Assembly (NCBI GenBank): GCA_902610905.1
Contig: CACLXS010000004.1
Span: forward strand, 22,880 to 86,879
Length of the DNA: 64,000 bases
Source: an uncultured SAR86 cluster bacterium
GTDB lineage: Bacteria > Pseudomonadota > Gammaproteobacteria > Magnimaribacterales > D2472
Reading direction: 5' to 3'
A program made the translations under genes and the position numbers. Below, piece by piece: positions 21,378 through 54,164 of this stretch. The notes under the pieces were generated by a model. That model was not told the DNA's origin and did no database searches. It worked only from the letters and a program-made list of their open reading frames with translations. Position 1 is the first letter of the stretch. The number at the start of each line of letters is the position of its first letter.

Positions 21378-22655
21378 ATGAATCTCACTGAAATAAAAGT
21401 TAAACCAATTAACGAATTGGTTGACATAGCATCCGAGCTTGGTCTTGAAGATGTTGGCAGACTCAAAAAACAAGAAATAATTTTTAGAATTTTCAAACAT
21501 AAAGCTTCTGAAGGTATTGATATTTATGGCGGTGGAGTTTTAGAAATACTTAACGATGGGTTTGGTTTTCTTCGTTCTCCAGAGGGTTCATATTGTGCAG
21601 GTGAAGATGATATATATGTTTCTCCAAGTCAGATAAGAAAATTTGGTCTTAGAAAAGGGGATTCTATTGCTGGTAAAATTAGAACACCAAAAGATAAAGA
21701 GAGATACTTTGCTTTAATTCAGGTAGACACTATCAATGGTGAAGAGCCTAAAAATACAAAAAATAAGATTTTATTTGAAAATTTAACACCTCTTTTCCCC
21801 AATGAAAGATTAATTCTTGAACAGGGAAGCGGCTCTAATGAAGATCTTTCATCACGAATTATTGACCTGATAGCACCAATCGGTAAAGGTCAGCGTGGAT
21901 TAATCGTTTCTCCACCTAAAGCTGGTAAGACACTAATGCTTCAGAGCATAGCTCATTCTATTAAAAGTAATAATCCAGAAGTTGAATTAATAGTATTGCT
22001 TATCGATGAGAGACCAGAAGAGGTTACAGAGATGTCAAGAACTGTTAAAGGAGAGGTTGTTGCAAGTACATTTGACGAGCACCCAAGCAGACATGTTCAA
22101 GTAGCAAACATGGTTATTGAGAAAGCTAAAAGGTTAGTTGAACATAAAAAAGATGTTGTTATTTTGTTGGACTCAATTACTAGACTTGGAAGAGCATATA
22201 ACTCAGTTCAACCAGCATCTGGAAAAATACTAAGTGGGGGTGTTGATTCAAATGCTCTAGAAAGACCAAAAAGATTCTTTGGAGCAGCAAGAAATCTAGA
22301 AGAGGCAGGCAGCCTAACTATTTTAGCAACTGCTTTAGTTGAAACTGGATCTAAAATGGATGAAGTTATTTACGAAGAATTTAAAGGTACAGGTAATATG
22401 GAGATCCATTTGGAAAGAAAAATTGCAGAAAAACGTATCTTTCCAGCAATTAATATTAGAAGATCGGGCACACGAAGAGAGGACTTGTTAACTTCAGAGG
22501 ACGAACTCCAAAGAATGTGGGTTCTTAGAAAAATCCTTGATGAAATGGAAGATGCACAATCAATACAGTTCTTAATTGACAGGCTTAAGTCACATAAAAC
22601 AAACGACGAGTTTTTTACTTCGATGAAAGCTGGAAATGGGAAAAAATCTAAATAA
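21378..22655 (+). CDS. rho: Transcription termination factor Rho
   Basis: [42 protein letters not shown]. Confidence 0.98.
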
Positions 22656-47408: not shown

Positions 47409-50000
47409 TTAGTTTCTATACTCAAAACTTATGCCAATAATTCTTCCTCTTGGATCATGAACCCTTGTATCAAAGCTAAAATCTGGAGCATCGTAAAGTC
47501 TCGGTGCTGCTTCATCAAAAACATTAATGACTGATAGCTTGATATCAGTTTCACCTCTATTTGTAATTAACAATTTTTTTACTGAAAGGTCGTGAATCAA
47601 AAAAGAATCAACATAATTGTTATATCCATATGCTGTTCCAAGACTATTGATCGGTCGCTCATTACTATATCCATCAATATATCGTGAATTAAAGTTAAAA
47701 TCGTAATCTTGATATTTCCAATTTAAAAAAGCATTGATTCTATTTTTAGGAAGAGAATGGGTATTAGTATCGTAATTAAATTTACCAACTCTATTTATCA
47801 TAATTTCACCATCTTCATTTCCAAGAGCTGGTGTAAGAAATTCTATTAAAGTTGTTGAATTTATTGATAGTGATAGATTTCCAAATTTATCTGAGCTTGC
47901 TATAAGCCTATTAAAACTTAAATCAAGTCCTGAAACTTCAGTTGACTCTTCATTAAAATAGGTTGTGGTAACCCCAATTAAATCACCACTAGAATTTCTT
48001 GTAATGCTTGGACCATTTGGGTCTGTGTTAAGTATTACTTGTGCACTTTGAGATTCAATTTTATTTTTGTAATCGATATTCCAATAATCAATGCTTAGTC
48101 TATTTTTTTGATTTTCAAAAATAAGTCCAATATTTAAATTCTTAGAGGTTGCAGGCTTAAGGTTCGGGTTGCCGATTTGTGCTTGCCTCACAAACGGTGA
48201 ATTGCCATTAAAATCTCTTACGCTTCCAAGGTTAATATCACTTGAAAACATTTGTGCCATGGAGGGCATAGAAAAAGATGAACTTTTAGAAGCTCTTAAA
48301 GTTATATTTTCAGATGCGATATATTTAAAAGAGATTTTAGGGTCAAATGATGAGTCATTCTCAAACTCTTCAAATCTTCCAGCAATCTTGATATCAATAT
48401 TTTCTATTGGCTTGGGCTGAATTTCAAAAAAACCAGCATATTTACTTCTATTTTTTGAGACGTTTATACCTCCACCTAAAAAGAACAGGTCTGCTGATTT
48501 AATAATCTTGCCATCTGCATCAAATTGAGCTCTGCTAACATCATCATATGAAATTTTAAGCTCCTCATCATTCAATTGAAGACCATATGCTATTTCGTAG
48601 CTATTCATATTAGTTCTAAATATAAAATCAAGAGTTGTTAAAGATGCTTCTTTTGAAGAAACCTCAGCACCTCTTACATAATCAATTAATTCTTGAGAAT
48701 TCTGCGTTGAATCAAAAATATTCCAATACATAAGATTTCCATTAGATTGTCCCATGGTTGTGCCATTTAATGCTTCTAGGAACCTTGAATCGATAATATC
48801 CGGCCTGTAATGATCATTAGAGTGACTGCTAATAGTTAAAGAAGCTTCTAGTTCAGTGCTTTCATTAATATTAGTATTGATTGTCTGACTAAGATTATAT
48901 TGTTTTATATCCTTTGGAGAATATGGGGAATCAAATTCAGATCCAAGAGGACGTCCATACCAAGTAACTGGAACATTAAAAGGATTACCTCCTTGATTAG
49001 GTTGAATTTGTCTCGATAAAAAAGGAAGAGCAGGGTATGAGGGTGACTGAGGGTTATCATTTACTTTAACCGCTGATCCCATAAAGGTTATCTCATAAAC
49101 ATAACTGCTTCTTTCAAACAATAAATTGGCATATGCTTTGGAATGATCTTCATCATTCACTATGTTAAATCTGGTACCATATAAGAATCTGCAACGAGAC
49201 CCATCTAATATGCCACCATTTGCCTCACATTGAGGGTCAGGTACAAATTGATTAGCATCATAATTGCCTGAATATAAACCAGTACTAACAATATCATCAG
49301 CAGAAATCTTAAAGGTTTTACCTAAGCCGCTAAGACCAAGCTCTGCTATTCCAGGTATTTCAGATGCAGACAGAGCTGATCTTTCTAGAATGCTAAGACC
49401 AATTACATAGTTACCATTTTTATACTTAGATCCTAGCAATAACCCTAAGGATTTATCACTCTGACTATAATTTGAAGTTTCAAAGTGATTAATTCTTAAT
49501 TTAAATCCTTCAAAATCTTTCTGAGTTAAAACATTTACAACACCAGCAACGGCGTCAGACCCATACAATGAGGTGGCTCCTTCTTTTAAAACTTCAATTT
49601 GTTTGATTGCTATTTCAGGAACTATGTTTACATCAATATATCCTTCGCCTTGATTAGAGGGTGTTCCAGCAAAAGTATGTCTCTTTGAATTAAGTAGCAA
49701 CAGAGTAGAGGAGTGTTCTAAACCTCTTAAGGTTATTGAGGCCATTCCTTGATCAACTCCCTCAAGTGCATTTGTTTGGAAATGTGAACCAGATGATGAT
49801 GTTAGGTATTTACTAATTTCTGCAAAATTAGAAATATTAAATTTTTCAAAATCTTCTTTAGTTATAACATTTACTGGCGAGGCGTCTTTTTCTGAATTAT
49901 TAATTAATGACCCAGTTGTAACTATCTCTTCAACATTCGAGTTAGTCATGATGAGTGGACTCAATAGTAATAAGTATATGAATTTAATATGTTTAATCAT
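47409..50000 (-). CDS. TonB-dependent receptor, substrate unknown
   Basis: TonB box EEIVTTGS, plug IEVLKEGATSLYGSDAVAGVVN, GNPNLKP, C-term PRGR..; ATG at 50000 preferred. Confidence 0.9.
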   Translation of the reverse strand: MIKHIKFIYLLLLSPLIMTNSNVEEIVTTGSLINNSEKDASPVNVITKEDFEKFNISNFAEISKYLTSSSGSHFQTNALEGVDQGMASITLRGLEHSSTLLLLNSKRHTFAGTPSNQGEGYIDVNIVPEIAIKQIEVLKEGATSLYGSDAVAGVVNVLTQKDFEGFKLRINHFETSNYSQSDKSLGLLLGSKYKNGNYVIGLSILERSALSASEIPGIAELGLSGLGKTFKISADDIVSTGLYSGNYDANQFVPDPQCEANGGILDGSRCRFLYGTRFNIVNDEDHSKAYANLLFERSSYVYEITFMGSAVKVNDNPQSPSYPALPFLSRQIQPNQGGNPFNVPVTWYGRPLGSEFDSPYSPKDIKQYNLSQTINTNINESTELEASLTISSHSNDHYRPDIIDSRFLEALNGTTMGQSNGNLMYWNIFDSTQNSQELIDYVRGAEVSSKEASLTTLDFIFRTNMNSYEIAYGLQLNDEELKISYDDVSRAQFDADGKIIKSADLFFLGGGINVSKNRSKYAGFFEIQPKPIENIDIKIAGRFEEFENDSSFDPKISFKYIASENITLRASKSSSFSMPSMAQMFSSDINLGSVRDFNGNSPFVRQAQIGNPNLKPATSKNLNIGLIFENQKNRLSIDYWNIDYKNKIESQSAQVILNTDPNGPSITRNSSGDLIGVTTTYFNEESTEVSGLDLSFNRLIASSDKFGNLSLSINSTTLIEFLTPALGNEDGEIMINRVGKFNYDTNTHSLPKNRINAFLNWKYQDYDFNFNSRYIDGYSNERPINSLGTAYGYNNYVDSFLIHDLSVKKLLITNRGETDIKLSVINVFDEAAPRLYDAPDFSFDTRVHDPRGRIIGISFEYRN

Positions 50001-50016
50001 GTTATGACGCAAAAAA

Positions 50017-50077: not shown

Positions 50078-50482
50078 TTAAGCTTTTGAAGTATCGTGGC
50101 AGTCACAATTTACTTTTTTACAGATTCTATAGTTTCTGTAATGGCAAGCAATTACCATCAGCGAGCCAATAGTAGTTAAAATTAGTTCTGCATTTTCACC
50201 AATGCTTTCTCCAATTAAAAGCGCTGAAATAAGAATTGTTAATCCAGCAATGCCAGTATAGATAATGGAGTTATTAGGATGATTTTTATATCCCAGGCTA
50301 ATTGCAAAAATGCTAACTGGAATAGTTAAAAGCAATATAGCTTTATGAATAAGCTCACTTTCGACAGTTAATGCTAAAGAGCTATATGAAAGTATTATTA
50401 AAGATGGGGCAAATAGGCAATGAATCATGCACATAGCTGAAAACGACATTGCAAATTTATCTGATATTAGTTGTGATTTCAT
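50078..50482 (-). CDS. MerC-domain membrane protein (probable metal transporter)
   Basis: DK.A...S.MCMIHC..P in TM1, four TM segments, H in TM2, H..N and CxxxxCxCH at the C-term; no mer operon nearby. Confidence 0.8.
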   Translation of the reverse strand: MKSQLISDKFAMSFSAMCMIHCLFAPSLIILSYSSLALTVESELIHKAILLLTIPVSIFAISLGYKNHPNNSIIYTGIAGLTILISALLIGESIGENAELILTTIGSLMVIACHYRNYRICKKVNCDCHDTSKA

Positions 50483-50488
50483 AATATT

Positions 50489-50523
50489 AAAAAACCCCCA
50501 AACCTTATTTAAAGTGAGGGGGC
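50489..50523 (-). terminator. Probable intrinsic terminator after the His-rich receptor
   Basis: Minus strand GCCCCC-TC-ACTT-TAAATA-AGGT-TT-GGGGGT followed by a T-tract. Confidence 0.6.
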
Positions 50524-50547
50524 CTATATTAATTGAAAAAATCTAAT

Positions 50548-52779
50548 TTAGTAAGTTAAATTAAATTTAATTCCATAGTTTCTTCCCGGAAGAGGAACTT
50601 CATTCTTAACAAAAGAAGCATGATTTCTTGCAACTTCATCTAGAAGATTTCTTCCGAATAGTGAAACTTTAAGCTTACTTTTTCCACTTAAATCAAATGT
50701 CTTAGTCAGCCTTGTGTCCAGCATTTGATATCCAGCAGTAGCTGTTTCGCCTTCACCAACATCATTTTGTTTTTCAACATCTTTTAAATGTAACTTAAAG
50801 ACTATGTCATCTTGAGCATATGAAAGTAAGTAAACATTTCTTGCAGGATTTATTCTTGGTACGTTATGACCATCTGTAAATTGAGCATTTACAACATCTC
50901 TACCAAAAGATAATGTCATTTCACCAGCACCCAAATCAAATGTTCTTCCAAATTCGATTTCATATCCATCAAACTCAGCATCTTCTTGAACATAATTAGC
51001 ATGAATGAGATTGCCATGACCATGGTCGTCTCCATGATCATCATCGTCATGATGCTCGTCTTCATCTTCATGATGCTCTTCCTCATTATGCTCATCTTCA
51101 TGACCTTCGTCTTCATCAATTAGAGCAATATAGTTATCTACATCATTAATAAAGAAGCTTGCATATGCAAAATATTCTCCGTTATCAAAATTTAATGAAA
51201 TATCAAAATTATTTGAAGTTTCAGAAGTTAGAGTAGGATCTCCTACTTCAAATCTACCTGTAGCATTATGAGGACCATTCATAAATAATTCAATTACAGA
51301 TGGCAGCCTCTCTACGCTAGAATAGCCGAGGTTTAACTCTAATGTATCAGAAAGATCTCTGCCAATACTGACAGCAAAGTTTGAAACATCATCATCTATA
51401 GTAAAATTATCTACATCGCCATGATCTTCATCAGTAACACTTCCAGTTCTTGTAACTTGATCTAATCTAATTCCCAAATCTACATGAAACATATCAAAAT
51501 CTTGACCTACAAAATAACCAAGTGTTAGCACTTCATTGTTTGCGGGATTCATGAATGCCTCTTCTCCAACTATTGAAGAATCTTCATCAATATAATTAAA
51601 TGATAATTTTTGAGTTCTTATGTCATTTGAGATATCAAAAATCGTACTATATTCAGTGGCATTGTTAGCAAAAACTGTTGGAGCATGTTCTTCATGTTCC
51701 TCTTCGCCTTCATGTTCATCATGTCCCTCTTCTTCGGCATGCGCTTCAGTTAAGGTGTAGTCAGTATCTCTATATGTATAGTCAATTTTGTTAATTAAAT
51801 TGCCATTGAGATTATAGGAACCTTTTATAGTAAAGCTTTCAGAATCTGTTGTTGAGAAAATTCTTTCCTCACCATGTTCATCGTGATGCTCATCTTCATC
51901 ATGCTCATCTTCGTCATGATGATCTTCATCACCATGCTCATCTCCATGTTCGTCACCATGGAAAGGGATTCCATATAAACTTTCAAGGTTGTCCACTGAA
52001 ACACCAACATAACCCCAGTCACCTGCTCTTGAAATACCAAATTTAGTAGCCTCTACAGCAAAGTCAGAATTATTAACAAATCCGAGATTTTCTTCATGCT
52101 CATCTTCGTCGTGATGATCTTCATTACCATGATCATCGTGTTCTTCCTCTTCATGCATTATCGCACCATTAGGAATATCATAATTTCCAAATTCAGTATT
52201 TTTATAACCAACATTGACGTTAAAGCCATTGAAATTATTTTTAAAGTTAATGAATTCAGATGAACCATCATTCACTGATTGAGTTTCATAACCAACTTTC
52301 AATTCAGGAAGCTCGTAATTCATTGCTGCGATGAAGTCATCTACAACATTAATGATTCCACCAATAGTTCCATTGGCATAGAGTAATGATGATGGACCCT
52401 TAACAATTTCTATTTGTTCAATATCATTAAGATCAACATCATTTAAATGATCGGCGCCAAGACCAGAAACATCTCTATTCACCATTCCATTTTTTAGAAT
52501 TTTTACTCTAGGTCCTGACATGCCTCTAATTATTGGCTGTCCAACAGCAGCACCATAATCTGCAATAGAAACTCCAAGATAGCTATCAATAGCATCTCCT
52601 AGGCTTGTTGTTGCATCATCGATAATCTCATCGCCGTCTATAACGTACAATGGATTTGTAATTTCGGTTGTGTCTATCAAAGCAGACGTAACCACGATAA
52701 TTTCTTCAACATCTTGTGAAGCGATTTCGTTTGTGTGTATAGCACCTAATATTATTAATGTGCTTAAAAATTTTTTCAT
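50548..52779 (-). CDS. ZnuD-like TonB-dependent metal receptor with His/Asp/Glu-rich loops
   Basis: Plug QPIIRGMSGPRV...DVS....DH, KGPSSLLY, ELFMNGPHNATGRFEVG, RNHASF...PGRN resemble the ZnuD family; four His-acidic tracts; SD AGGAGG. Confidence 0.85.
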   Translation of the reverse strand: MKKFLSTLIILGAIHTNEIASQDVEEIIVVTSALIDTTEITNPLYVIDGDEIIDDATTSLGDAIDSYLGVSIADYGAAVGQPIIRGMSGPRVKILKNGMVNRDVSGLGADHLNDVDLNDIEQIEIVKGPSSLLYANGTIGGIINVVDDFIAAMNYELPELKVGYETQSVNDGSSEFINFKNNFNGFNVNVGYKNTEFGNYDIPNGAIMHEEEEHDDHGNEDHHDEDEHEENLGFVNNSDFAVEATKFGISRAGDWGYVGVSVDNLESLYGIPFHGDEHGDEHGDEDHHDEDEHDEDEHHDEHGEERIFSTTDSESFTIKGSYNLNGNLINKIDYTYRDTDYTLTEAHAEEEGHDEHEGEEEHEEHAPTVFANNATEYSTIFDISNDIRTQKLSFNYIDEDSSIVGEEAFMNPANNEVLTLGYFVGQDFDMFHVDLGIRLDQVTRTGSVTDEDHGDVDNFTIDDDVSNFAVSIGRDLSDTLELNLGYSSVERLPSVIELFMNGPHNATGRFEVGDPTLTSETSNNFDISLNFDNGEYFAYASFFINDVDNYIALIDEDEGHEDEHNEEEHHEDEDEHHDDDDHGDDHGHGNLIHANYVQEDAEFDGYEIEFGRTFDLGAGEMTLSFGRDVVNAQFTDGHNVPRINPARNVYLLSYAQDDIVFKLHLKDVEKQNDVGEGETATAGYQMLDTRLTKTFDLSGKSKLKVSLFGRNLLDEVARNHASFVKNEVPLPGRNYGIKFNLTY
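51001..52155 (-). repeat. Four low-complexity CAT/GAT/GAA-codon tracts encoding His/Asp/Glu loops
   Basis: Tracts at ~51001-51117, ~51685-51741, ~51867-51960 and ~52090-52155, e.g. HGDEHGDEHGDEDHHDEDEHDEDEHHDEH. Confidence 0.85.
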
Positions 52780-52781
52780 AA

Positions 52782-52847
52782 GAACTCCTCCTATAAATAA
52801 AAAATAAAAATTTAAAATATAAAAAATTTATTTTTTTGGTGGAGCTC
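52782..52847 (-). promoter_or_regulatory. Predicted mRNA hairpin pairing the RAPP codons with the receptor Shine-Dalgarno
   Basis: mRNA GAGCUCCACC (52847-52838) pairs with GGAGGAGUUC (52791-52782): 9 of 10 pairs including one G-U; can extend through A-tract/U-tract pairing. Confidence 0.65.
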
Positions 52848-53106
52848 GAGATAGATAGTTACTCTGATTTTTTAAAGAAGAATTATCAGGGGCTAATTCT
52901 TCAACAAAAGAAATTTGAATTAATTCACTGACTTCAGAATCAGCATTTTGAAGATCAAAAGCTTTATTTTCACAAAGTTGACATTCAACAATAGATTCAG
53001 ACTGATGCTCATCAATATGATCATGAAGTAAAGTATCAGCAGAAAGAGATGCAATGAAAAAAATTCCAAAAAATAAAATTAGTTTTGATTTGATATATTT
53101 ATTCAT
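52828..53106 (-). CDS. DUF2946/CruR/CutF-like leader peptide with CxxC and C-terminal RAPP arrest motif
   Basis: Hydrophobic N-term, HDHIDEH, CQLC, ends YLSRAPPKK; 48 bp upstream of a metal TBDR. Confidence 0.75.
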   Translation of the reverse strand: MNKYIKSKLILFFGIFFIASLSADTLLHDHIDEHQSESIVECQLCENKAFDLQNADSEVSELIQISFVEELAPDNSSLKNQSNYLSRAPPKK

Positions 53107-53111
53107 GCAAA

Positions 53112-54164
53112 TTAATGTTTGAGACAGACCAACCCTTTAATGTTACCTGACTTAAGATCAGCAAGTGTATCACTTGCTTGTGAGGCAGGTCTAGTCTCTA
53201 CTTCTATAGGTTCAATTTTACCAGATCGTACAAGTTCCATAAGCTCATTCATCTCTTTTAAACTTCCTACGTATGCACCTTTAATAGTCCTAGCTGTAAA
53301 AGTATGAAGAGGTAGTTGGAGGTTAAAATTACCTCCAATTAATCCAACTAGAATATACAAACCGCCTTTATTAATACCAAATAGACCATACCCAAAAGAT
53401 ATTGAGCTTTGTGATCCAACAAAATCAATAATTTTTGTAACTTTGCCTCCAGATAATCTTATGATCTCTTCAGAAGCATTTTCACTTTTTGAATTTATTA
53501 CATTATTTGCACCAGCTTTTTTAGCAACATCTAGCTTTTTATCATCAATGTCTATAACTATTGTCTTAACGTTATATGCTGCTTGTGCAATTTTTAATGC
53601 TAACAATCCCATTCCACCAGCACTAATTATTACAATACTTTCACCGTCCTTGATTTCTGCTTTCTTTAAAGCACTATATGCAGTTAAGCCTCTGCATGCA
53701 TAACTTCCGGCTAATTCTTCTGGAGTTTCTCCAGCATCAAAAAGATATTTTGCATCTTTTACTAAAACGTATTCACCATAACCACCGTCAACAGAAACAC
53801 CAATATTTTCAGCAGTGAAAGGTGAACAATAGTGCTCCATATCATTTTGGCATTCATTACAGCTGCCACAACCAATCCAAGGATATACAACGTATTTTTT
53901 GCCAATTTGTATGTTTGTAACTTTGTCTCCAACTTCTACAACTTCTCCAAAAACCTCATGGCCCATTGCTAGGTTCTCAGTCACTCTTGATGGAATATGA
54001 GTTTTATCACCCAAGTCAAAATAACCATCATGAATATGTATATCTGTATGGCAGACACCGCACGAGATTGTCTTTATTAGAATCTCTTTACCCGTAGGAG
54101 AGGGCTCATCTATTTGTTGTTCTTCAAGAGGTTCCCCATTTTTAACAACTTTATATGACTTCAT
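53112..54164 (-). CDS. Zinc-dependent alcohol dehydrogenase (MDR family)
   Basis: CGVCHTD, GHE, structural CGSCNEC...C, Rossmann-like SAGGMG. Confidence 0.92.
   Translation of the reverse strand: MKSYKVVKNGEPLEEQQIDEPSPTGKEILIKTISCGVCHTDIHIHDGYFDLGDKTHIPSRVTENLAMGHEVFGEVVEVGDKVTNIQIGKKYVVYPWIGCGSCNECQNDMEHYCSPFTAENIGVSVDGGYGEYVLVKDAKYLFDAGETPEELAGSYACRGLTAYSALKKAEIKDGESIVIISAGGMGLLALKIAQAAYNVKTIVIDIDDKKLDVAKKAGANNVINSKSENASEEIIRLSGGKVTKIIDFVGSQSSISFGYGLFGINKGGLYILVGLIGGNFNLQLPLHTFTARTIKGAYVGSLKEMNELMELVRSGKIEPIEVETRPASQASDTLADLKSGNIKGLVCLKH

Follow-up and report, generated by a model that had tools for sequence, protein, structure and literature searches.

Introduction

In Bordetella pertussis the DUF2946 protein CruR (Bp2923) exerts RAPP-dependent control over the TonB transporter BfrG, and copper relieves the arrest via the CxxC motif of the peptide, which allows Rho-dependent termination in the 162-nucleotide (nt) spacer that follows (PMC9426467). 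Throughout the CruR family the distance between CxxC and RAPP, which we refer to as the ruler, is 45 residues, give or take one or two (PMC9426467), and in vitro CruR arrests with Pro3 in the ribosomal P site and Pro4 in the A site (PMC12992588). In the CutF system of Rhodobacter capsulatus a stem-loop shields cutO's Shine-Dalgarno (SD) sequence and the stall is induced by copper, and CutF-like proteins form clusters with Cys, His or mixed ligands and frequently have TonB-like genes as neighbours (PMC9973294; bioRxiv 10.1101/2025.02.05.636593). A 2025 survey found secretory leaders with RAPP or RGPP to be enriched upstream of TonB receptors across Gram-negative bacteria (PMC12992588). Here we compare with these systems a 92-codon leader open reading frame (ORF) and the ZnuD-like TonB-dependent receptor gene behind it, both found in a 64,000-nt stretch of DNA from an uncultured SAR86 cluster bacterium (GenBank assembly GCA_902610905.1, contig CACLXS010000004.1, positions 22,880 to 86,879; this whole stretch is referred to as the window). 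We argue that the leader is exported and probably acts in cis as an arrest peptide of the type represented by CruR and CutF, controlling translation initiation of the receptor.

A leader ORF directly upstream of a ZnuD-like receptor gene

An earlier note on this DNA had described four co-oriented parts in the order leader, SD-hiding hairpin, receptor and MerC-domain membrane protein, and this observation is confirmed, as leader, spacer, TonB receptor and MerC-family gene all lie on the minus strand. The source genome amounts to 1.02 Mb at 78.6% completeness and has a G+C content of 32.6%. The parts that carry the argument are the following, with positions counted in the window.

52828-53106, minus strand: leader ORF of 92 amino acids (aa), CruR-like arrest-peptide candidate (sequence, orthologues and alignment)
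53035-53106, minus strand: signal-peptide-like N-terminus of the leader, residues 1-24, with a Lys-rich start, a hydrophobic core and SLSA followed by Asp (read from the sequence)
53005-53025, minus strand: His-rich motif HDHIDEH, leader residues 28-34 (sequence and alignment)
52972-52983, minus strand: CQLC (CxxC), leader residues 42-45 (sequence and alignment)
52837-52848, minus strand: RAPP codons CGA GCT CCA CCA, leader residues 87-90, 41 residues past CxxC and two codons before the stop
52782-52847, minus strand: predicted hairpin between a GAGCUCC arm (52841-52847) and a GGAGUUC arm (52782-52788) (fold, comparative folds and genome controls)
52780-52827, minus strand: A/U-rich spacer of 48 nt between leader stop and receptor start (sequence)
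50548-52779, minus strand: His-rich ZnuD-like TonB-dependent receptor, 743 aa (Pfam, NCBIfam, PDB and alignment)

Read along its length, the leader passes from a Lys-rich start through a hydrophobic core of 13 residues and SLSA/D to HDHIDEH, CQLC and RAPP, after which there are only two Lys residues and the stop. Its N-terminus, read by eye, is a candidate Sec signal peptide, with the Lys-rich start, the hydrophobic core and small residues before an Asp.

Leader and receptor across related genomes

In a protein search, leader-like matches turned up in most of 61 related genomes, and 33 wider contexts were examined together with the window (34 contexts) for the leader and its neighbours. Of the 34 contexts, 32 contain a leader with both CxxC and an xAPP end, the two misses (L043 and L048) keeping RAPP and the first Cys only, and in 31 of these 32 leader loci the next gene was the orthologous receptor, which began 36-62 nt further on (mostly 38-48 nt). 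Counted from the receptor, an orthologue was present in 50 of the 61 genomes. Nine of these had given no initial leader match, and a RAPP-ending ORF was found directly upstream of the receptor in eight of the nine and none in the other (G031). Conservation of the leader upstream of orthologous receptors, as the switch proposed in the earlier note would have it, is therefore borne out in 49 of the 50 receptor-bearing genomes (46 read as sequence, and three, G008, G034 and G048, placed by coordinates).

In two genomes the leader stands without the His-rich receptor. In G049 it is followed by a gene on the opposite strand, and in G022 (locus L097, G022:C20:1500-5400), a species of the window's genus, the leader and a complete 8/8 SD helix precede a chimeric receptor, the body of which is 67% identical to a second TonB receptor of the window and the signal peptide of which is like that of the His-rich receptor. 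This second receptor comes after the His-rich one in many relatives, and recombination between the two neighbouring receptor genes appears to have removed the His-rich receptor and MerC from G022. The gene upstream of the leader varies, with the dehydrogenase seen in the window occurring only in the window's genus and at one other locus. Since both the upstream gene and the position of MerC are variable (see below), the conserved unit is the leader plus the receptor.

We also note that the frame of the His-rich receptor is broken at codon 283 in L036 (G004) and at codon 326 in L038 (G019), and that two TAA codons fall within the receptor match at G008:C1:906-1457; these interrupted frames may be pseudogenes or assembly errors.

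Conservation of the leader peptide

In an alignment of 31 leaders, identity to the window copy drops to 17%, and the conserved positions are limited to the two Cys, one His and RAPP: C42, C45, A88, P89 and P90 never vary, and at least 90% of the sequences keep H28 and R87 (one member has QAPP). The His-rich stretch differs in length between relatives and the number of residues between RAPP and the stop ranges from one to four, whereas the ruler measures 40 or 41 residues at each of 32 loci even though the intervening sequence is not conserved.

The same features recur in metagenomic proteins. A profile search of 1.84 billion cluster representatives recovered 188 proteins at E ≤ 1e-3 (68 of them at E ≤ 1e-10), nearly all of about 90 residues, and among the best 150 representatives 101 have both CxxC and a C-terminal xAPP, the spacing being 40 residues in 25 of them, 41 residues in 62 and 42-46 residues in 14. 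The remaining 49 of the best 150 are mostly truncated or chimeric metagenome ORFs, with a few one-Cys, RGPP or RSPP variants. Three proteins (P0064, P0131 and P0136) share an unrelated tail resembling sequencing-adapter read-through and are chimeric ORF calls in the public collection.

Among the 12,364 open frames of at least 30 codons in the source genome, only the leader carries R[AGS]PP followed by no more than eight residues at the C-terminus. RAPP itself occurs once in all open frames of at least 100 codons, and as a rough estimate from composition gives about one occurrence per genome, the single occurrence is not significant alone.

These observations bear on two other explanations of the leader. 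It might be an ordinary exported small protein which binds metal as the periplasmic partner of the receptor, with RAPP and the hairpin having no regulatory role, and its export features, its metal-ligand residues and its constant position beside the receptor would all fit such a partner. However, the roughly 40 residues between CxxC and RAPP are unconserved in sequence yet fixed in number, which suits a ruler and not a fold, and RAPP is held at the extreme C-terminus where its codons pair with the SD, so that we consider a mere partner protein scarcely credible. Alternatively, the arrest might report export or periplasmic disulfide formation instead of metal, with receptor synthesis being matched to the capacity for secretion or redox chemistry. 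Secretion monitoring is the role for which RAPP arrest peptides are best known, the N-terminus of the leader is signal-peptide-like, and CxxC is able to act as a redox pair. DsbA and thioredoxin genes, too, can have a RAPP leader upstream (PMC12992588). We nonetheless judge a secretion or redox monitor to be very unlikely, since the gene downstream encodes a metal-type TonB receptor and not Sec, YidC or Dsb, a conserved His-rich stretch accompanies the Cys pair, and members with one Cys keep RAPP, which argues against an obligatory disulfide.

Some features of the leaders weigh against placing them with CruR as metal-sensing arrest peptides. The second Cys is missing from L043 (G027) and L048 (G044), and likewise from six metagenomic proteins (P0021, P0023, P0052, P0073, P0094 and P0096), all of which retain RAPP, the His-rich stretch and the first Cys; given such members, the Cys pair is not obligatory in all leaders. 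The earlier note had cited DUF2946-type leaders as the known parallel, and membership in that family is not supported: the leader has no Pfam-A match at E ≤ 1, DUF2946 and DUF2607 included. None of the 31 leaders matches PF11162 (DUF2946) at E ≤ 1, and nothing in the whole genome matches it at E ≤ 10. When the leader profile was compared with DUF2946-type ORFs only the last 12-13 columns could be aligned, in a comparison that was itself weak because it drew on an alignment of five sequences which were poorly aligned at CxxC. The spacing between CxxC and RAPP in DUF2946-type ORFs of other Gammaproteobacteria is 43-45 residues (hand count).

Loci outside the order provide a weak bridge between the two groups. 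Of eight ZnuD-like receptor loci from other families of the class, four have a His/Cys leader ending in RAPP or RGPP. The leader at one out-of-order ZnuD-like receptor (L079) scores E = 0.03 against PF11162, which is a weak match, and aligns to the window-type leader profile over 85 columns with 92% probability. We read the window-type leaders as a divergent branch of the DUF2946/CruR superfamily, though they may instead have converged on a short set of motifs. Locus L082, from another family (G246, 1.1 Mb and 31% G+C), combines a leader with His, CxxC and RAPP with a 40-nt spacer and an SD that pairs with the codons at and after RAPP, and comes from an independent small AT-rich genome.

Predicted pairing between the arrest codons and the receptor SD

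In the window, GAGCUCC within the Arg-Ala-Pro codons is predicted to pair with GGAGUUC of the receptor SD, and this pairing is extended by a helix between an A-run and a U-run. The duplex between the leader 3' end and the SD, at -14.5 kcal/mol, ranks first among 35 comparable gene pairs of the genome (mean -5.3, standard deviation 3.2), and the energy needed to open the receptor's ribosome-binding site, at 10.3 kcal/mol, ranks fourth among 97 genes (mean 5.3, standard deviation 2.4).

We compared the pairing across 31 loci (the window plus the contexts of 30 relatives) and found it to occur in two registers. In register A, GCU CCA pairs with GGAGUU and a perfect 7/7 helix is found in 15 of the 31 loci, while in register B, CCU CC pairs with GGAGG and a perfect 6/6 helix is found in six; no locus has both, and the choice of codons and the flank of the SD change jointly. 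Matched 5' and 3' arms give -11.2 kcal/mol compared with -9.6 kcal/mol for mismatched arms, and the observed mean was reached in none of 2000 permutations, though this count overstates the support as the loci are kin. Ten loci have no perfect helix in either register. In one genus among these ten the SD pairs instead with the two codons after RAPP and the stop, which in our model would still be covered by a stalled ribosome.

This model masks positions -12 to +15 nt around the first Pro codon, a placement taken from the CruR toeprint. Across the 31 loci the mask brings the predicted opening cost of the ribosome-binding site from a mean of 11.3 down to 6.0 kcal/mol. The SD window starts 21-47 nt past the 3' edge of the mask, depending on the locus, which we infer would leave space for a second ribosome.

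The case for the hairpin is tempered by a number of these results and by others. Apart from the ten loci without a perfect helix and the kinship of the loci, CCUCC in Pro-Pro codons is inherently complementary to an SD and part of the pairing therefore comes free. The 121-nt fold of the window is ordinary (z = -1.3, with 19 of 200 shuffles folding equally well), and masking lowers the opening cost there from 10.5 to 7.8 kcal/mol, a gain of only 2.7 kcal/mol. The gain falls below 1.5 kcal/mol in six of the 31 loci (L046, L053, L055, L056, L061 and L062), three loci of one sister-family genus (L058, L061 and L062) have only a local SD hairpin, and the mean unpaired probability of the SD window is nearly unmoved by the mask (0.31 vs 0.34). 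The hairpin of the earlier note, which was said to hide the SD of the receptor, thus stands as a prediction that is backed by comparison, and falls short in being weak or absent in about one-third of loci and small in the window itself.

It could also be that the peptide sensor is as we propose and its output is that of CruR, with the stall blocking Rho termination, or with Rho acting on untranslated receptor mRNA, and the hairpin being secondary. CruR works in this way (PMC9426467), Rho is encoded in the genome (at 21531-21749 of the window, G000:C4:44410-44628), and receptor mRNA that goes untranslated because its SD is occluded would be exposed to Rho. On the other hand, the spacers of 36-62 nt seen here are almost free of C, compared with a GC-rich spacer of 162 nt in CruR, where long spacers are the rule of the family, and the co-variation between arrest codons and SD would be unexplained by a model with Rho only. 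We regard an output through Rho as improbable, and retain control of translation initiation as the preferred explanation.

The receptor and the metal it is likely to carry

The receptor has the Plug and barrel domains of its family in Pfam, and ZnuD (NCBIfam NF038289) was the best of its 22 NCBIfam matches, with 213.1 bits. ZnuD was also the sole PDB match at E ≤ 1e-10 (4rdr, 8.9e-32), in an alignment that leaves about half of the chain unaligned. His makes up 5.1% of the receptor, which contains four His/Asp/Glu-rich stretches (residues 209-231, 274-305, 349-365 and 555-590), and these external stretches consist almost wholly of His, Asp, Glu and Gly. The high-affinity zinc site of ZnuD is formed by Asp99, His100, Glu340 and His499 (PMC4557270). 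D110, H111 and H504 of the receptor are invariant in 29 of 29 orthologues and align to Asp99, His100 and His499, given an inferred numbering offset of 14, and the region of the fourth ligand, Glu340, falls outside the alignment.

Two points reduce the value of these matches for a zinc receptor: the ZnuD score lies well under the model cut-off of 950, and the ligand-like Asp-His in the plug loop and the His box are conserved in haem receptors as well. The least His-rich receptors in the set are found at L058, L061 and L062 (1.5-2.1% His, with 2.6-5.5% elsewhere), where the spacers are also longer (54-57 nt).

The metal is most likely Zn(II), to judge from these similarities, and Cu, Co, Ni and Cd remain candidates. 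A switch of the same design which senses copper, as for CruR/BfrG and OprC, or else Co, Ni or Cd, but not zinc, seems to us unlikely, though less so than the other alternatives considered here. MerC-family proteins, one of which is encoded next to the receptor, carry thiophilic metals, and CxxC is a classic pair of Cu(I) ligands. Both studied members of the class respond to copper (PMC9426467; PMC9973294), and CutF-like proteins with other ligands have been proposed to sense Ni or Co (bioRxiv 10.1101/2025.02.05.636593). Against this, the TonB-copper model gives the receptor 46 bits and the ZnuD model 213 bits, ZnuD is the one close relative with a solved structure, the receptor loops and the leader contain much His, Asp and Glu but no clusters of Met or Cys, and the usual zinc importers were not found in the genomes of the lineage that were searched.

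Other metal regulators and importers

The one Fur-family gene of the window's genome encodes Fur (166 bits) and not Zur (25 bits), and exactly one such gene is present in 40 of 41 relatives, including all 21 high-quality genomes. No Zur was found in these 41 genomes, and ZnuA was found in one of the 41 and ZIP in none. The window's genome itself gave no match for ZnuA, ZIP, MerR_1 or an ArsR-type regulator; it is 78.6% complete, which makes these regulators and importers not found rather than absent and weakens any argument built on their lack.

The earlier note had reported no obvious Zur box, and this agrees with a scan of the 220 nt upstream of the leader in 32 loci, where no Fur- or Zur-box-like match rose above background. 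The best Fur-box score was 12 of 19 (background mean 11.7, maximum 15) and the best Zur-box score 15 of 23 (background mean 13.2, maximum 17).

The proposed switch and what it would mean

Taken together, our results lead to the following proposal. During translation of the leader the ribosome would pause once the first of the two RAPP Pro codons occupies its P site, a placement carried over from CruR, and would then cover the Arg-Ala-Pro codons that otherwise pair with the receptor SD. The SD, lying some 25-35 nt beyond the leading edge of the paused ribosome, would be freed and the receptor made. At this point the His-rich stretch and CxxC, 40-41 residues from RAPP, would be just out of the exit tunnel, and if metal were bound there, folding or export could pull on the chain and release the arrest, after which the hairpin would re-form and receptor synthesis would stop. 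The switch would in this way likely turn the receptor gene on when metal is scarce. Much the same switch had been put forward in the earlier note: the conserved leader with RAPP, Cys and His, the ruler, the predicted anti-SD hairpin and the failure to find Zur speak for it, and an arrest-peptide-plus-hairpin architecture is well backed by comparison of the related loci, while stalling, the binding of metal, the polarity and which metal is involved are what we infer from that architecture.

The proposal can be taken further. As no Zur, ZnuABC, ZIP, MerR-type or ArsR-type protein was found in the genomes of the order that were searched, the leader could be the sole zinc sensor of the cell. It would then be the first zinc-responsive arrest peptide, with arrest codons that double as the anti-SD, and a 92-codon ORF would replace transcription factor, operator and attenuator. 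We offer this extended claim tentatively and would not call it probable.

If the proposal is true, arrest peptides that sense metal are not confined to copper and reach as far as a zinc-type uptake receptor, and abundant ocean bacteria with very small genomes can regulate the acquisition of a trace metal without a dedicated transcription factor. The work on CruR and CutF leaves open how the nascent chain turns ligand binding into release (PMC9426467, PMC9973294 and PMC12992588), and with a leader and spacer of about 330 nt the present locus would be a compact model that bears on how ligand binding frees RAPP arrest. The spread of such leaders has probably been underestimated, given that earlier surveys used a Pfam model which does not pick up this family. 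Should receptor expression track the supply of metal, zinc stress could be read from it in ocean metatranscriptomes and metaproteomes.

Neighbouring genes, terminator and promoter

The remaining features of the locus are the following.

50489-50525, minus strand: terminator-like GC-rich hairpin with a U-run between receptor and MerC (fold compared with shuffles)
50078-50482, minus strand: MerC-family membrane protein of 134 aa, a neighbour (PF03203, 1.9e-24)
53112-54164, minus strand: zinc-type alcohol dehydrogenase, context only (sequence, Pfam and NCBIfam)
47409-50012, minus strand: second TonB receptor downstream, context only (Pfam Plug and barrel)

The MerC-family protein matches PF03203 with 86.8 bits over profile positions 1-108 (gathering score 27.6), and has no solved relative at E ≤ 1. 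The 65-nt spacer between the receptor and MerC folds into a hairpin of -20.9 kcal/mol (z = -3.3, with none of 200 shuffles folding equally well). Counted strictly by script, 12 or more of 29 loci have a similar hairpin after the stop codon of the receptor, and folds reveal further ones; the counting scripts were crude (8 of 31 and 12 of 29) and only the lower bound is used. A separate scan for promoters and terminators overlooked the hairpin between receptor and MerC, as its loop is long. MerC adjoins the receptor only in the window's genus and a few others, and is present somewhere in 49 of the 61 relatives. Because a terminator-like hairpin precedes MerC and the position of MerC varies, MerC is probably outside the regulated unit, and its inclusion in the uptake module by the earlier note is not upheld, adjacency being a feature of only part of the order. 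A literature search, which was swamped by word-start matches, found no report of zinc import by MerC. In another family of the order, the receptor is followed by small ORFs, which proved to be unrelated (cupin-like and pyrimidine-dimer-glycosylase-like), so that there is no conserved third gene.

The stop of the dehydrogenase and the start of the leader are separated by 5 nt (53107-53111) and no SD-like word was found in this region before the leader, the translation of which may be coupled to the dehydrogenase in the window's genus. A promoter scan gave no convincing site for the leader, with 13 sigma-70-like sites compared with 21.9 in shuffles.

Occurrence in marine RNA libraries

The stretch is present in marine and seawater metagenomes and in six metatranscriptome runs. 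Contigs from four RNA-library runs, belonging to three studies, cover leader, spacer, receptor and MerC, and one contig of 538 nt (X20) reaches from the receptor to the leader, taking in the receptor start codon, the entire spacer and the final 28 nt of the leader, which include the RAPP codons. Such contigs indicate presence only: a single transcript, its level and its strand are not given by them, and carry-over of DNA is possible. Positions 52622-53077, for example, have no contig cover in X15 and X16, and such gaps carry no information. One further contig (run X17) runs through MerC to its start (50483) and continues for 20 letters which, in reverse complement, match the junction of dehydrogenase stop and leader start (about 53098-53117); either it comes from a strain with the dehydrogenase directly before MerC and neither leader nor receptor, or the assembler joined similar 5' ends.

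Comparison with known systems

The earlier note overstated the novelty of the locus, in that CruR already controls a TonB receptor, CutF already has a shielded SD, and the 2025 survey already places RAPP leaders before TonB receptors. No literature that links CruR or CutF with ZnuD or SAR86 was found, judged by titles and the beginnings of abstracts, and the word zinc does not occur in the accessible main text of the CruR, CutF and RAPP-survey papers (PMC9426467, PMC9973294 and PMC12992588), supplements aside. The class is in print, and the present leader is probably a branch of it, one that would combine a sensor and target like those of CruR with an output like that of CutF and SecM.

The leader resembles CruR in having CxxC, a C-terminal RAPP and a fixed ruler, and in lying directly upstream of a gene for a TonB-dependent transporter, and the polarity we propose is also the same, with the stall being the ON state and metal freeing the stall. 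It differs from CruR in lacking a PF11162 match (none of 31), in having a ruler of 40-41 and not 45 residues, and in the extra conserved His-rich stretch. The spacer of CruR is 162 nt long, GC-rich and Rho-dependent, in contrast to the A/U-rich 48 nt and predicted SD-occluding hairpin here. The receptor here is ZnuD-like and not followed by a PepSY_TM gene, and the leader lies 5 nt behind another gene and is not clearly the first in its operon.

With CutF the leader would share the exported, nascent metal-sensing peptide and the stalled ribosome that melts a stem-loop shielding the SD. The motifs of CutF are CxxxC and PPP, however, where the present leader has CxxC and RAPP, and what it controls is a detoxifying multicopper oxidase. 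The stall of CutF is brought on by metal, which is opposite to the polarity proposed here, and in the present locus the anti-SD arm would be the arrest codons themselves. The leaders of the RAPP/RGPP survey (PMC12992588) have the near-C-terminal RAPP and the TonB receptor downstream in common with ours, and a signal peptide where ours has a signal-peptide-like N-terminus; the survey was based on motifs and annotation, and its accessible text names no zinc link and no hairpin formed by RAPP codons.

SecM, ApdA, ApdP and VemP combine a C-terminal RAPP or RAGP arrest with a signal peptide, as we propose for the leader, and in SecM the stalled ribosome opens an SD-shielding hairpin. The genes downstream of these four are Sec or YidC genes and release is by translocation force, whereas here a metal receptor follows and the leader has conserved Cys and His ligands.

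ZnuD of Neisseria meningitidis (4rdr; PMC4557270) is the best solved relative of the receptor, and the two have in common external stretches rich in His, Asp and Glu; three of the ligand positions would also be shared if the numbering offset of 14 holds. The acidic His-rich stretches of the present receptor are far longer. In the known cases ZnuD is under the control of Zur, which was not found here.

Set beside these systems, the locus appears to add four aspects to the class: the target of the leader is ZnuD-like, the predicted anti-SD arm is built from the arrest codons, the lineage is one in which Zur, ZnuA and ZIP were as a rule not found in the genomes searched (ZnuA in one of 41), and the leaders form a branch that is invisible to the Pfam DUF2946 model.

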